Below are positions 2,786-32,000 of a DNA stretch of 32,000 nt, one piece after another. The DNA is from Staphylothermus hellenicus DSM 12710. GTDB lineage: Archaea; Thermoproteota; Thermoprotei_A; Sulfolobales; Desulfurococcaceae. Numbering within the stretch: the stretch's first letter is position 1; the number at the start of each line of letters is the position of its first letter. The stretch lies in contig NC_014205.1 of NCBI RefSeq assembly GCF_000092465.1, positions 510,001 to 542,000 of the forward strand. Reading direction: 5' to 3'. The notes beneath the pieces are model-generated. The model had not been told where the DNA came from and did not search any database. It was given only the letters and a program-made list of their open reading frames with translations. Made by a program: the position numbers and the translations under genes.

Positions 2786-3445
2786 TTGCCATTAATATAC
2801 GTGCTTGATACAAGTGCTGTAACTGATCCCAGGCTTAGAGAGGTTTTTGGAGTTAAAACTTTAGATGGTGTTGTCAGAGAATATGCCCGCCTACTTATAA
2901 GGTCCCATATAGTCTTAGGCGCTGAATTCTATACAACACCTAGTACAGCATTAGAGCTGAGAAGCTTCCTTGAAAGAAACAATGTTAGTAGAGAAGCAAT
3001 TGATATGTTAATGGGAGCCATAACTATTAGATCACCCGACCTATACACTACTCGAATACCAGCAATAATTATGAGTGACTGGATACATGACATGTTAATC
3101 AGGATAACAAAGGGGTTAAGAGTGGCTGAAAATAGTGTACGTAGAGCGGCTCGAAAAGGATATGATTATGGGATAGCAAAGAATAAGAAAGGATTGGAGG
3201 AGAGCGTTGCACAATCAATACATGAGCTTAGAGAAAAGTATCGAGAAGCTACTCGTAAAGGTGTTATTGATACGAGAGTTGATTTCGACCTTGTAGTATT
3301 AGCTCATGAAATAAACGGGGAACTAGTAACTAATGATACTGGGATAATGAAGCTATGCATGCAAATCGGTGTAAAATATATTGAGCCCCCTAGATTTATC
3401 AATAAATTATTCCTATTATTACGGGAGAGAACAGGCAGGGTTTAG
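2786..3445 (+). CDS. HARP-type RNA-free RNase P candidate (UPF0278, PIN-like metallonuclease)
   Basis: 219 aa with a TTG start. The N-terminal IYVLDTSAV is a PIN acidic motif. Other matches: EFYTTPS, IRSP, RITKGLRVAE, LREKYREATRKGVIDTRVDFDLVVLAHEINGELVTNDTGI and IGVKYIEPP. These line up with my memory of Aquifex Aq_880 and archaeal UPF0278 proteins. No HMM search was possible. Confidence 0.75.
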   Translation: MPLIYVLDTSAVTDPRLREVFGVKTLDGVVREYARLLIRSHIVLGAEFYTTPSTALELRSFLERNNVSREAIDMLMGAITIRSPDLYTTRIPAIIMSDWIHDMLIRITKGLRVAENSVRRAARKGYDYGIAKNKKGLEESVAQSIHELREKYREATRKGVIDTRVDFDLVVLAHEINGELVTNDTGIMKLCMQIGVKYIEPPRFINKLFLLLRERTGRV

Positions 3446-30310: not shown

Positions 30311-30481
30311 CCCGCGAATGGGAAGCAAATATTTTATCTATTCTCTATTCTTCGGTGAAAAAAATAAAATATACAGTTAAAAACATAAACCCATACTTGC
30401 TGCACACATATGGATACATAGAATATGCTTCCATAGATAGATATTACAAAGCACTACTTAGTTCTCTAGAGTTAAAACCAT

Positions 30482-30772
30482 ATGTGCCAAATAAAAAACC
30501 TTGTCTCATCCATCCATCAATTAAACTGTAGTAAATGCCCATACAGAAACACATGCATATATGGCTTAACACGAAGCATCTTCAAGTACTCCAACGGTAT
30601 TATCCAGTCAATAAGCTATATTCAAGGCAGAATACAGAAACACTTAACTAAAAGAATGAAGCATAGAAGCAAGCTCGAAGAAACAATAATGGATCTGATC
30701 CTACGTGAAGATTTTAACAACATCCATAAAAGCTATACTGAACTAATAGGCTCCATAAAAAACACTGATTAA
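30482..30772 (+). CDS. Questionable 96-aa ORF, no recognisable motif
   Basis: It is the only ORF in a 650-nt gap. The C-terminal third (MKHRSKLEETIMDLILREDFNNIHKSYTELIGSIKNTD) looks protein-like. The N-terminus is Cys/Asn-rich and may not be real. Confidence 0.25.
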   Translation: MCQIKNLVSSIHQLNCSKCPYRNTCIYGLTRSIFKYSNGIIQSISYIQGRIQKHLTKRMKHRSKLEETIMDLILREDFNNIHKSYTELIGSIKNTD

Positions 30773-30962
30773 TTCTAGAAAAACTAGTTAATGTAAATGC
30801 TGCAGTGCTACAACCTTAATTCTTTTAAAAAGATGAAAGAATAATTATTTATAAGATTTTAATATAGCTATATGTTTGTATAGGCTATAATATTATAGTT
30901 TTTGTTTTCAGCATATGTACTCTTTGGGAGTTTGGCGTTGGTGTCTAGCAGGGGTTAGAGTT

Positions 30963-31313
30963 CTAGTGTAGTTCTAGTTTGAGGCCCAAACTTCTTAGTC
31001 TTTCAAAATCTTTATCCTTGGTAACTAGTACATAGTTTCTTGATATAGATGTTGAGGCTATGAGTAGGTCTGCGTCTGGGATGAGTTGTCCCATATGCTT
31101 TAGTGAAGTATATAGTTCGCAGTACTTCATTATTACATCATTGTCTATGCCTATAACCTCATATATCCTTTCAAGAAGCTCCTTAACACGCTTTCTCTTA
31201 TGTTGCGGGACACCTCTTAGTACCTCAATAAGTGTAATAACCGATATTGCTCCTTCAACAAGTTCTCCCCGACGTAAATAATCTATCAACACACTTGTAT
31301 CATAGATCTTCAC
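30963..31313 (-). CDS. vapC: PIN-domain ribonuclease toxin VapC
   Basis: The N-terminal IYDTSVLID carries the first PIN acidic residue. Further matches are TLIEVL, DADLLIASTSI and VTKDKDFERL. GTG start; 116 aa. Confidence 0.85.
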   Translation of the reverse strand: MKIYDTSVLIDYLRRGELVEGAISVITLIEVLRGVPQHKRKRVKELLERIYEVIGIDNDVIMKYCELYTSLKHMGQLIPDADLLIASTSISRNYVLVTKDKDFERLRSLGLKLELH

Positions 31314-31486
31314 CGTAGCCTAAACCCATCCCTAAAACTCTTGCTAGACCTAATAATCTCCTCATAATCCCTATCATCAAGGATTCTTCTAAGCTCCTCA
31401 AATGCCTCACGAATACTACTCCAATCACGCTCACCCTTCTCCCTCTCCAACAACTCCTTAACCTCCCTCAGCACTGAAACTTTCAA
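31310..31486 (-). CDS. vapB: VapB-type antitoxin, ribbon-helix-helix-like (58 aa if TTG start, 54 aa if GTG at 31474)
   Basis: Hand translation gives TTG-AAA-GTT.. = MKVSVLREVKELLEREKGERDWSSIREAFEELRRILDDRDYEEIIRSSKSFRDGFRLR. Its TGA overlaps the vapC GTG (GTGA). The frame opens only 15 nt upstream, at a TGA formed at the spacer/repeat border. It is below the ORF-track size cutoff. Confidence 0.6.
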   Translation of the reverse strand: MKVSVLREVKELLEREKGERDWSSIREAFEELRRILDDRDYEEIIRSSKSFRDGFRLR

Positions 31487-31955
31487 TTTTTCTAAATTGT
31501 TTCAATAGAAGCGGTTAAGAAGGGCTATTATCACATGGATCGCTTTCAATTTTTCTAAATTGTTTCGGTGTCTGTGTCTGGCTAGGAGTAGTTGTTTCTG
31601 ATCCACTACCTTTCAATTTTTCTAAATTGTTTCATATGTTTCCACTGCTATCAAGTGCTTTAACCCTTATTATCTTTCAATTTTTCTAAATTGTTTCTTT
31701 ACTTGGAAGCCGTGTGGGACATAGAATCTAACCGTTTGCTTTCAATTTTTCTAAATTGTTTCCAAACATTTTGAAAACACTTGATAATTCCCATAGGCTC
31801 CCTTTCAATTTTTCTAAATTGTTTCTTTATTACTAGATACCAATTGTTAAACCTTGCCTCAATTCTTTCAATTTTTCTAAATTGTTTCGCTCCATATTTG
31901 GCTTGACAAAAAGCTAAAAACGTTGATAACTCTTTCAATTTTTCTAAATTGTTTC
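31480..31955 (-). CRISPR. CRISPR array: 8 identical 24-nt repeats and 7 unique spacers (39-43 nt)
   Basis: The plus-strand repeat CTTTCAATTTTTCTAAATTGTTTC starts at 31480, 31543, 31610, 31674, 31739, 31802, 31865 and 31932. Its reverse complement GAAACAATTTAGAAAAATTGAAAG ends in the canonical archaeal 8-nt crRNA handle ATTGAAAG, so crRNA sense is the minus strand and the leader should lie to the right. Spacer lengths are 39, 43, 40, 41, 39, 39 and 43 nt. The 45 nt after the last repeat contain no new repeat, so this is either the leader or an unusually long spacer cut by the window edge. Confidence 0.95.
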
Positions 31956-32000
31956 CTCGGTCTAGCTGCTGCAAACAATGAAAGCATAAGCCCCTCTTCA

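Follow-up and report, generated by a model that had tools for sequence, protein, structure and literature searches.

A CRISPR repeat overlapping a truncated vapB gene in Staphylothermus hellenicus as a probable rearrangement scar

Our analyses support an origin by rearrangement for the overlap between the trailer-end repeat of a small CRISPR array and the start of a vapB-type antitoxin gene (here vapB') in Staphylothermus hellenicus, which is very probably a unique and derived scar and not an evolved device. This view is founded on comparison with ~57 related loci, of which 11 belong to close orthologues and 46 come from metagenomes, and among which vapB' constitutes a one-off copy, truncated and internally deleted, so that the overlap looks like the trace of a join. 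That vapB' and the downstream toxin gene vapC are still expressed, by read-through from the array leader and from an internal start codon, is close to an even matter, and to the explanation as a whole, combining scar origin with read-through expression, we give a probability of about one half. The stretch of DNA analysed, referred to throughout as the window, comprises 32,000 nucleotides of the S. hellenicus DSM 12710 genome, and all coordinates are positions within it unless otherwise indicated.

The CRISPR array lies on the minus strand (31480-32000) and continues past the end of the window, with its leader beyond position 32000. Eight identical copies of a 24-nt repeat, GAAACAATTTAGAAAAATTGAAAG, occur in the window at a spacing of 63-67 nt (31480-31503, 31543-31566, 31610-31633, 31674-31697, 31739-31762, 31802-31825, 31865-31888 and 31932-31955, all on the minus strand). 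The complete array is found on an identical Logan contig (L002), where its 10 repeats, all identical, enclose 9 unique spacers, each 39-45 nt long. On the far side of the array this contig carries ~800 nt of 31% GC with no called genes, that is, an AT-rich leader upstream of repeat 1, with TTAAAATA roughly 23-30 nt ahead of that repeat; the location of this AT-rich, gene-free stretch makes the vapB side the trailer end in crRNA sense. The trailer-end (tenth) repeat (31480-31503, minus strand) is identical to the other copies, and its 3' end, ATTGAAAG (31487-31480), is the expected 8-nt 5' handle of a crRNA, established Cas6 biology predicting a cut between 31488 and 31487. Identical direct repeats, unique spacers of similar length, the handle and an AT-rich leader on the opposite side are all as in a crenarchaeal array of type I-A/III style.

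The first-pass annotation had noted that vapBC pairs are known to cluster near crenarchaeal CRISPR-cas loci. No cas domain was detected among the ORFs of the window (31 kb on one side) or in the 3.4 kb beyond the leader, so that neither adjacent cas genes nor a Cas6 gene accompany the array within this span, and that setting therefore does not apply to the S. hellenicus locus. An Rfam scan of positions 30800-32000 returned neither CRISPR-DR nor any other family. Both the exact repeat and its degenerate form GRAAYAATYTAGAARAATTGAAAG gave 0 matches in the genome contig collection; the exact repeat also gave 0 matches in metagenome contigs and in viral contigs, as did the cores of spacer 1 and spacer 9 in viral contigs. 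The source genome is apparently absent from these collections. A further, degenerate repeat considered inside vapB' (TTAGAAGAAT, 31392-31383) was rejected, as it lies at an unsuitable distance (103 nt) and agrees at no more than 10 of 17 bases. Besides this cas-less array of 10 repeats, the S. hellenicus genome has two other CRISPR arrays.

At the junction, our coordinates agree with the initial description of an array, vapB and vapC fused in line on the minus strand. The last repeat (31503-31480) gives its TTGAAAG to a 58-aa ORF (31310-31486, minus strand) opened by TTG 31486-31484, which indeed overlaps the PIN-domain gene (31313-30963) by GTGA; the alternative GTG, 6 nt beyond the repeat, was located at 31474; and between the array and vapB' neither intergenic space nor a canonical TATA box is present. 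The stretch homologous to the vapB orthologues starts at TCA 31477, 0-2 nt past the last base of the repeat at 31480 (junction 31477-31480, minus strand), and promoter, ribosome-binding site and 7-11 N-terminal codons have thus been lost from vapB'. In their place, the array occupies the position of the orthologues' TATA-like box, TAGTTAT repeats, GGTGAT, start codon and codons for (M)xKYxTI, and the 58-aa ORF falls short of the native start of the 75-aa form by just 4 codons. Since just one of the three frames through the 3' end of the repeat contains a start codon, an abutting ORF has a 1-in-3 probability of sharing the frame of the TTG, an outcome that chance could produce. A join within 2 nt of the repeat edge and an ORF start so near the native one are together tidier than the usual random breakpoint and count against a pure scar view. 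One possible cause of the join, microhomology of the TTGAAAG repeat end with the native start (TTGAAGAAG in L012), is not established, because an additional 12-nt deletion would still be needed.

The product of vapB', a truncated and internally deleted gene of the PF02697 antitoxin type, comprises 58, 54 or 47 aa when read from TTG 31486, GTG 31474 or TTG 31453, respectively; the NCBI annotation (Shell_0589) adopts the 47-aa form, and the Logan gene caller the 54-aa form. None of the three versions matches PF02697 at E<=1, and the 58-aa product has no Pfam or NCBIfam match of its own, its putative identity as a VapB resting on homology to full-length PF02697 antitoxins. The orthologue P0002, which matches positions 2-69 of the 69 in the PF02697 HMM with 31.7 bits, is the closest sequence in alignment A2, with 79% identity to vapB' (the BLASTP value is 67%). 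Alignment with homologues places a 39-nt in-frame deletion at 31412-31417 (minus strand), which drops 13 residues (FLLxLxxExxxLx), a near-invariant L and E among them, that are present in 21 of 21 aligned homologues and in nearly all of the 46 metagenome loci. Furthermore, the near-invariant Y-x-T-I is lost in the 58-aa form, which has K-V in place of T-I (MKVSV as against YxTISV). The consensus of the 21 homologues reads MxxYxTISVPxEVKxxLEKxKGxxDWGxFLLxLxxExxxLxxxxAFxEL..., and among these sequences vapB' alone is without both the 13 residues and YxTI. Helices are predicted at 15-25, 30-56 and 59-75 in the structure model of the full-length protein (pLDDT 87), and the second is shortened to 22-35 in that of the window VapB' (pLDDT 77). 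The loss of YxTI, the helix deletion and the failure to match PF02697 weaken the proposal that the TTG within the repeat is the only start to provide a ribbon-helix-helix antitoxin with its N-terminal strand.

The vapC gene (30963-31313, minus strand) is intact and codes for a 116-aa PIN-domain toxin, its GTG start lying in the GTGA overlap with the vapB' stop. The protein matches PF01850 (PIN) with 41.4 bits against a cutoff of 23.6 (E=2.6e-10) and retains every invariant residue of the family (D5, E30, D80, D82, D100 and D102); NCBIfam VapC models match it below their cutoffs. The C-terminal half of vapB' is likewise highly conserved (dN/dS 0.056, compared with 0.18 for vapC), both values mostly reflecting the history that preceded the fusion.

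The 46 metagenome loci were gathered by alignment of VapC, as the VapB alignment had no stretch conserved enough. Nearly all related vapC genes are preceded by a PF02697 VapB of 75-79 aa with its own 5' signals, and the 11 close orthologues have in common a TATA-like box, TAGTTAT direct repeats, GGTGAT and a start codon. The orthologue-type TATA-like box, the TAGTTAT repeats and GGTGAT are all absent from the window vapB', which is therefore without the promoter and operator of its own that an autoregulated type II toxin-antitoxin (TA) operon has. A CRISPR array was found near the related vapC in none of the 11 orthologue and 46 metagenome loci (the latter checked within 2 kb), and the repeat is absent from the other 14 loci compared (13 vapBC and 2 syntenic, one of these being the array-truncated L004). 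Orthologous vapB genes with unrelated 5' ends and no adjacent repeat, the outcome named beforehand as refuting a coupling of vapBC to the array, are thus what the 11 and 46 loci present.

At the syntenic locus of a related Staphylothermus contig (L015), neither array nor vapBC is present between the OTCase and MBL genes. Array and vapB'C are contained in an indel of ~1.85 kb (2277-4131 on L002) that is specific to S. hellenicus. Beside vapC, a frameshifted gene remnant (30361-30760, plus strand), corresponding to residues 183-315 of a 325-aa protein intact in L015, marks local rearrangement and decay.

According to the explanation that we favour, a PF02697-VapB/PIN-VapC cassette would have been joined to the small orphan array at the distal edge of its trailer-end repeat (at most 2 nt away), and the join would have stripped vapB of its promoter, TAGTTAT repeats (a putative operator), GGTGAT, start codon and first 7-11 codons. 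A separate in-frame deletion of 39 nt would have taken the 13 residues from the long second helix, and the in-frame TTG of the ATTGAAAG handle would be a product of chance, at the odds given above. As vapB'C is without a promoter, any expression would have its source in pre-crRNA started in the leader and running through the terminal repeat. The leader promoters that drive archaeal arrays are strong, and S. hellenicus encodes Cbp2, which has been proposed to favour long CRISPR transcripts and to suppress internal signals (PMC3597662). Runs of at least five T on the sense strand are absent from spacer 4 to the vapC stop; with no promoter of its own and no intervening T-run, array read-through offers the simplest route to the transcription of vapB'C. 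Such read-through might be weakened by the pair of T5 runs that spacer 3 contains, and the first sense-strand runs after vapC (T5, T5 and T6, 30757-30831, minus strand), 130-200 nt downstream, are candidate archaeal terminators. The earlier claim that read-through pre-crRNA carries vapBC is supported by the missing promoter and T-runs, and finds no counterpart among the orthologues, from which the arrangement is absent. The predicted fold of the last spacer, the repeat and the 5' end of vapB' was not significant (z = -1.6; the calculation assumed 37 C, whereas the organism grows at 85 C).

Translation of such a transcript would most plausibly begin at TTG 31453, which is preceded by a Shine-Dalgarno (SD)-like motif, or at GTG 31474, either start being more plausible than a 5'-OH A-UUG end made by Cas6. 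The SD-like GGAGGT (31461-31466, minus strand) precedes the in-frame TTG 31453 by 7 nt and may be incidental, given that it sits inside conserved coding sequence (REVKE); SD-like GAGG/GGTGA motifs occur upstream of many ORFs of the window. The N-terminally shortened antitoxin would keep its conserved C-terminal half, which is, by analogy with other VapB proteins, the toxin-binding part, and vapB' would be translationally coupled to the intact VapC via the GTGA overlap. Its autoregulation has presumably been lost, as the N-terminal half, normally operator-binding in type II antitoxins, is damaged and the 5' control region is gone. A Cas6 cut at the terminal repeat would merely part the last crRNA from the vapB'C tail. 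Both lesions keep the reading frame and vapC is fully intact, which would fit a module that is expressed and still under selection, perhaps as the first-pass annotation proposed, and weighs against the scar view.

That proposal, which we regard as very unlikely, was that Cas6 cuts the read-through RNA and leaves a quasi-leaderless A-UUG message translated from TTG 31486, by which the TA pair would be coupled to transcription and processing of the array; taken by itself, the statement that vapB'C is driven solely by the CRISPR leader, with a Cas6 cut at the terminal repeat setting the mRNA's 5' end, appears to us quite unlikely. A message released by Cas6 would suit the intact terminal repeat with its ATTGAAAG end, the in-frame TTG, which would fill positions 1-5 of the Pfam domain with MKVSV (xTISV in the family), the lack of a promoter for vapB' and of a terminator between it and the array, the intact vapC, the conserved C-terminal half of vapB' and the unusually precise join. 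However, the arrangement is unique to the S. hellenicus genome, all orthologues having 5' signals of their own, the N-terminal domain so restored is damaged anyway (13-residue deletion; T,I to K,V), the in-frame TTG has one chance in three of arising at random, and GGAGGT stands 7 nt ahead of the NCBI-annotated start, TTG 31453. In place of a TATA-like box ~26 nt upstream of TTG 31486, such as a leaderless mRNA would have, lies spacer 9. The products of Cas6 carry a 5'-OH. Archaeal leaderless mRNAs, in contrast, are described as 5'-triphosphorylated, UUG is avoided on fully leaderless S. solfataricus mRNAs, and a 5' phosphate is reported to matter in bacteria (review, PMC7531240), which argues against a message combining a 5'-OH with UUG.

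It is possible, if doubtful, that the promoterless pair is barely expressed, or that transcription ends within the array or the RNA is degraded once Cas6 has cut it, both genes then drifting to pseudogenes and owing their intact look solely to how recent the join is. Such decay would account for the two independent lesions of vapB' and its failure to match PF02697, and has parallels in the adjacent frameshifted remnant, in the 69 pseudogenes reported for the genome (PMC3236042) and in the decayed vapB next to an intact-looking vapC at four other loci (L033, L044, L054 and L058); the T5 runs of spacer 3 could, moreover, end part of the array transcripts. Yet both lesions are in frame, VapC has all its invariant residues, no terminator is present from spacer 4 to vapC, strong leader promoters have been described (PMC3597662), and a vapC transcribed without a working antitoxin should be counter-selected, whereas it is intact. 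Independence from both read-through and Cas6 would follow if the terminal repeat held a cryptic promoter, an unlikely reading, in which the TATA-like TTTAGAAA (31496-31489), after the purine-rich GAAACA, directs a start ~26 nt downstream, near 31466, and TTG 31453 is used. The geometry fits, with the box centred at ~31492.5, the start at ~31466, GGAGGT at 31466-31461 and TTG 31453 forming a short SD-bearing leader that ends at the start codon annotated by NCBI, and TATA-like motifs do occur in the spacers, occasionally in the repeats, of AT-rich crenarchaeal arrays (PMC3597662). Several points speak against it: TTTAGA deviates from TTTAWA, the core sequence, and the array yielded no canonical box; each of the ten repeats would be equally active as a promoter; Cbp2 has been proposed to suppress internal signals of this kind (PMC3597662); and in the orthologues the SD-like motif is simply part of the conserved coding sequence.

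The locus has in common with archaeal type II VapBC systems (PF02697, VAPB_antitox, VapB with PIN VapC) a full-length PIN VapC, the 4-nt stop/start overlap and a homologous vapB', and differs from them in that vapB' is without promoter-operator, GGTGAT, native start, 7-11 N-terminal codons and 13 internal residues, fails the Pfam model and has a CRISPR repeat as its 5' end. In the CreTA system of haloarchaeal type I-B, a crRNA-like antitoxin guides Cascade to repress a small RNA toxin. The coupling first envisaged for S. hellenicus was of the same kind, namely CRISPR-dependent toxin control in which loss of the machinery is penalised, whereas vapB'C belongs to a classical type II family with two protein partners, and we identified no guide of crRNA type directed against vapC. 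Cleavage of mRNA leaders by Csy4/Cas6 has been engineered. Similarly, MazF makes leaderless mRNAs in E. coli (cited in PMC7531240). Only under the Cas6 model would the locus share with such processed mRNAs an endoribonuclease cut just upstream of the start that sets a new 5' end; here, in contrast, the cut is hypothetical, the message would be an archaeal one that opens with UUG and carries a 5'-OH, and an internal start led by an SD-like motif is available too. In Sulfolobales, CRISPR-cas cassettes hold interspersed vapBC pairs, for which a role in CRISPR-Cas maintenance has been proposed (Garrett et al. 2015, PMC4390879). Both there and in S. hellenicus a vapBC pair adjoins a CRISPR element in a crenarchaeon, although theirs are complete and stand among cas genes, while here the pair is fused without intergenic space to an orphan array of 10 repeats.

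If still expressed, vapB'C would be a natural protein TA operon with a CRISPR array as its sole source of transcription, and would bear on the persistence of orphan arrays and on the fate of RNA past the last repeat. Were the 5' end of its mRNA indeed defined by Cas6, a classical TA pair would be wired to the transcription and processing of an orphan array, and might stabilise the array or tie growth arrest to CRISPR expression. On present evidence, the locus chiefly illustrates how, in variable regions of hyperthermophile genomes, TA cassettes and small arrays are reshuffled and decay. It further shows that one abutting ORF in three can be lengthened by the TTGAAAG end of this repeat class, which calls for caution in automated gene calling, as the three different starts called for the vapB' gene (58-, 54- and 47-aa forms) indicate.

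The CRISPR array at the end of the window lies on the minus strand and comprises eight identical copies of GAAACAATTTAGAAAAATTGAAAG (31480-31955) spaced 63-67 nt apart, the trailer-end copy (31503-31480) being identical to the others. Two Logan contigs bearing an identical VapC, L002 and L003, reach beyond the window (L002 is 100% identical to it across the 3.3 kb compared) and contain the complete array, with exactly 10 identical repeats and nine unique spacers of 39-45 nt. On its far side are ~800 nt of 31% GC with no called genes, including TTAAAATA about 23-30 nt ahead of repeat 1, and past this leader region the Logan contigs encode a 172-aa ORF and then ornithine carbamoyltransferase (OTCase). 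The crRNA sense was fixed by ATTGAAAG at the repeat 3' end together with the AT-rich leader, which places vapB at the trailer end. Neither the window nor the 3.4 kb past the leader contains a cas gene, and the array neighbours are housekeeping genes, e.g. those for PheRS, PGK, GAPDH and Cren7. According to its genome paper, S. hellenicus has three CRISPR arrays as well as 69 pseudogenes (PMC3236042). A lone degenerate copy of the repeat, GGAATAATCTAGAAGAATTGAAAG, occurs in the presumed leader ~360 nt upstream of repeat 1 in the same orientation (L002 2455-2478, outside the window); it agrees with the array repeat at 20/24 positions and may be left over from an older array or from another repeat variant. 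The leader-proximal spacer 1 (L002 2839-2881, also outside the window) has within it a short tandem repeat, GCCCTCTT GCCCTCTT GCCC, and a search of viral contigs for a 24-nt core that overlaps part of it gave no exact match.

At the trailer end, a TTG inside the last repeat (31486-31484) starts a 58-aa ORF (31486-31310, minus strand), here termed vapB', whose stop overlaps by GTGA the GTG start of vapC (31313-30963, minus strand), a 116-aa PIN-domain gene (Pfam PIN, E=2.6e-10). The terminal repeat, in-repeat TTG, ORF and GTGA overlap, as well as the in-frame alternative GTG at 31474, 6 nt beyond the repeat, were all correctly described in the first-pass annotation. Three starts have thus been called for this one gene: the TTG at 31486 of the longest ORF, the GTG at 31474 (54 aa, Logan gene caller) and a TTG at 31453 (47 aa, NCBI annotation, Shell_0589). 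Since only one of the three frames of the repeat 3' end has a TTG, another containing TAG and TGA and the third no start codon, an abutting ORF would be in frame with TTG by chance in one case out of three.

None of the three forms of the vapB' ORF matched Pfam or NCBIfam. The nearest relative of its product is P0002, a 79-aa VapB matching PF02697 (VAPB_antitox) across HMM positions 2-69 of 69, and an exhaustive search with P0002 retrieved 58 relatives, typically 75-79 aa long, 21 of which were aligned to give the consensus MxxYxTISVPxEVKxxLEKxKGxxDWGxFLLxLxxExxxLxxxxAFxEL...SSxEFRExFxLR. In contrast to xxYxTISV in all aligned relatives, vapB' begins with MKVSV, in which K and V stand in place of the near-invariant T and I and the Y is missing. 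Also unlike all of them, it lacks the 13 residues FLLxLxxExxxLx, near-invariant L and E among them, which corresponds to an in-frame deletion of 39 nt near 31412-31417. AlphaFold2 models P0002 (pLDDT 87) with an N-terminal coil (1-14) and helices at 15-25, 30-56 and 59-75, and the 58-aa product (pLDDT 77) with a coil of six residues (1-6) and helices at 7-17, 22-35 (shortened) and 38-56. The N-terminal domain is damaged from any start, so the earlier argument that only the TTG at 31486 yields a proper antitoxin no longer holds.

Each of the closest VapC orthologues (67-78% identity) is preceded by a PF02697 vapB of 75-79 aa, in unrelated genomic contexts and without CRISPR. The array repeat was absent from all 14 other loci compared, allowing up to three mismatches. 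Eleven orthologous 5' regions share a TATA-like box, direct TAGTTAT repeats and (A/G)TGGTGAT, followed by TTG/CTG ... TAY GYN ACN ATH TCN GTN; none of these shared 5' signals is present upstream of vapB' in the window, where homology to the orthologues starts at TCA 31477, 0-2 nt past the last base of the repeat (31480). Orthologous vapB genes have unrelated 5' ends and no adjacent repeat, the pattern that the first-pass annotation itself had named as the mark of a chance juxtaposition. Similarly, when metagenomes were scanned with a VapC profile, 80 loci were retrieved, of which the 46 sharing at least 42% VapC identity were analysed: no CRISPR-like array lay within 2 kb of any of them, and a full-length vapB was present in nearly all. 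Four metagenome loci (L033, L044, L054 and L058) carry an intact-looking vapC after a decayed, N-terminally disrupted or very short vapB, reflecting either recurrent decay of the antitoxin 5' half or assembly errors. Two to three direct TAGTTAT/TAGCTAT repeats lie between the TATA-like box and (A/G)TGGTGAT upstream of orthologous vapB (L005 and L012, 2207-2276; L010, 1556-1625; L001, 53-122; and L018), and plausibly serve as the operator in this VapB subfamily. The (A/G)TGGTGAT element is either SD-like or an in-frame start: GGTGAT could act as SD for a TTG start (75-aa form) or belong to an in-frame ATG/GTG start (79-aa form).

In the nearest relative available, the Staphylothermus contig L015 (MBL protein 91% identical), the OTCase-MBL interval contains neither array nor vapBC, and L002 2277-4131, which spans a portion of the leader, the array, vapB'C and a further 190 nt, is replaced by ~600 unrelated nt. 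Furthermore, vapC directly adjoins a frameshifted remnant in two reading frames (30361-30760, plus strand), which corresponds to residues 183-315 of a protein (325 aa, function unknown) that is intact in L015, the first 182 codons being gone. This is a hot spot of rearrangement, and we consider it highly probable (roughly 85%) that the trailer repeat of an orphan mini-array and a vapBC cassette were joined in a lineage-specific rearrangement. Neither element is new in kind, one being a CRISPR array and the other a VapBC pair of PF02697/PIN type, and their fusion is a curiosity seen in a single genome.

We regard it as rather unlikely that vapB'C is a silent fossil. The native promoter is lost. 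In VapC, all residues that are invariant in the family are retained. Relative to the closest orthologue, dN/dS was 0.18 for vapC; within vapB' it was 0.056 over the C-terminal half and 0.29 over the N-terminal part, values mostly reflecting pre-fusion time. Both vapB' lesions keep the reading frame, although a single in-frame deletion, with odds of one in three, is weak evidence. These features are consistent with ongoing selection for an antitoxin still possessing its C-terminal half, which by analogy with other VapB proteins would be the toxin-binding part.

The first-pass annotation proposed that read-through of the array, cut by Cas6 in the terminal repeat, releases an essentially leaderless A-UUG vapBC message. 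Its read-through component is plausible, as vapB' has no promoter of its own and no intergenic space to the array, archaeal arrays are described as being transcribed from strong leader promoters, and S. hellenicus encodes Cbp2 (Shel-1510), a repeat-binding protein whose proposed role is to promote long CRISPR transcripts (PMC3597662). Read-through remains the simplest way in which the pair could be expressed. On the sense strand, spacer 3 has two runs of at least five T (31920-31908), and no others follow until 130-200 nt beyond the vapC stop (30831-30757). The two T5 runs within the single spacer 3 (31908-31920, minus strand, crRNA sense; ACGTTTTTAGCTTTTTGTC) are potential archaeal terminators that could attenuate transcription of distal spacers and vapB'C. 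The Cas6-defined leaderless start is weaker, and we judge it improbable. Cas6 products carry a 5'-OH. Archaeal leaderless mRNAs are described as 5'-triphosphorylated, a 5' phosphate is reported to matter in bacteria, and S. solfataricus avoids UUG on fully leaderless mRNAs and cannot do without an SD motif for its distal cistrons (reviewed in PMC7531240). Here an SD-like GGAGGT (31466-31461) lies 7 nt upstream of the in-frame TTG at 31453; many window genes are preceded by SD-like motifs, and in orthologues GGAGGT is also ordinary coding sequence. A weak TATA-like TTTAGAAA in the repeat (31496-31489) might instead direct transcription from near 31466, but it departs from the canonical core and recurs in all 10 repeats, and Cbp2 is proposed to suppress signals of this type. 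If vapB'C is expressed today, array read-through with an internal start would most likely be responsible, and the significance of the fusion is modest unless vapB'C messages prove Cas6-dependent at their RNA 5' ends.

A separate 219-aa PIN_5 (PF08745) ribonuclease-domain gene, located between the PheRS alpha and RsmB-like genes (2786-3445, plus strand), is unrelated to the vapC beside the array.
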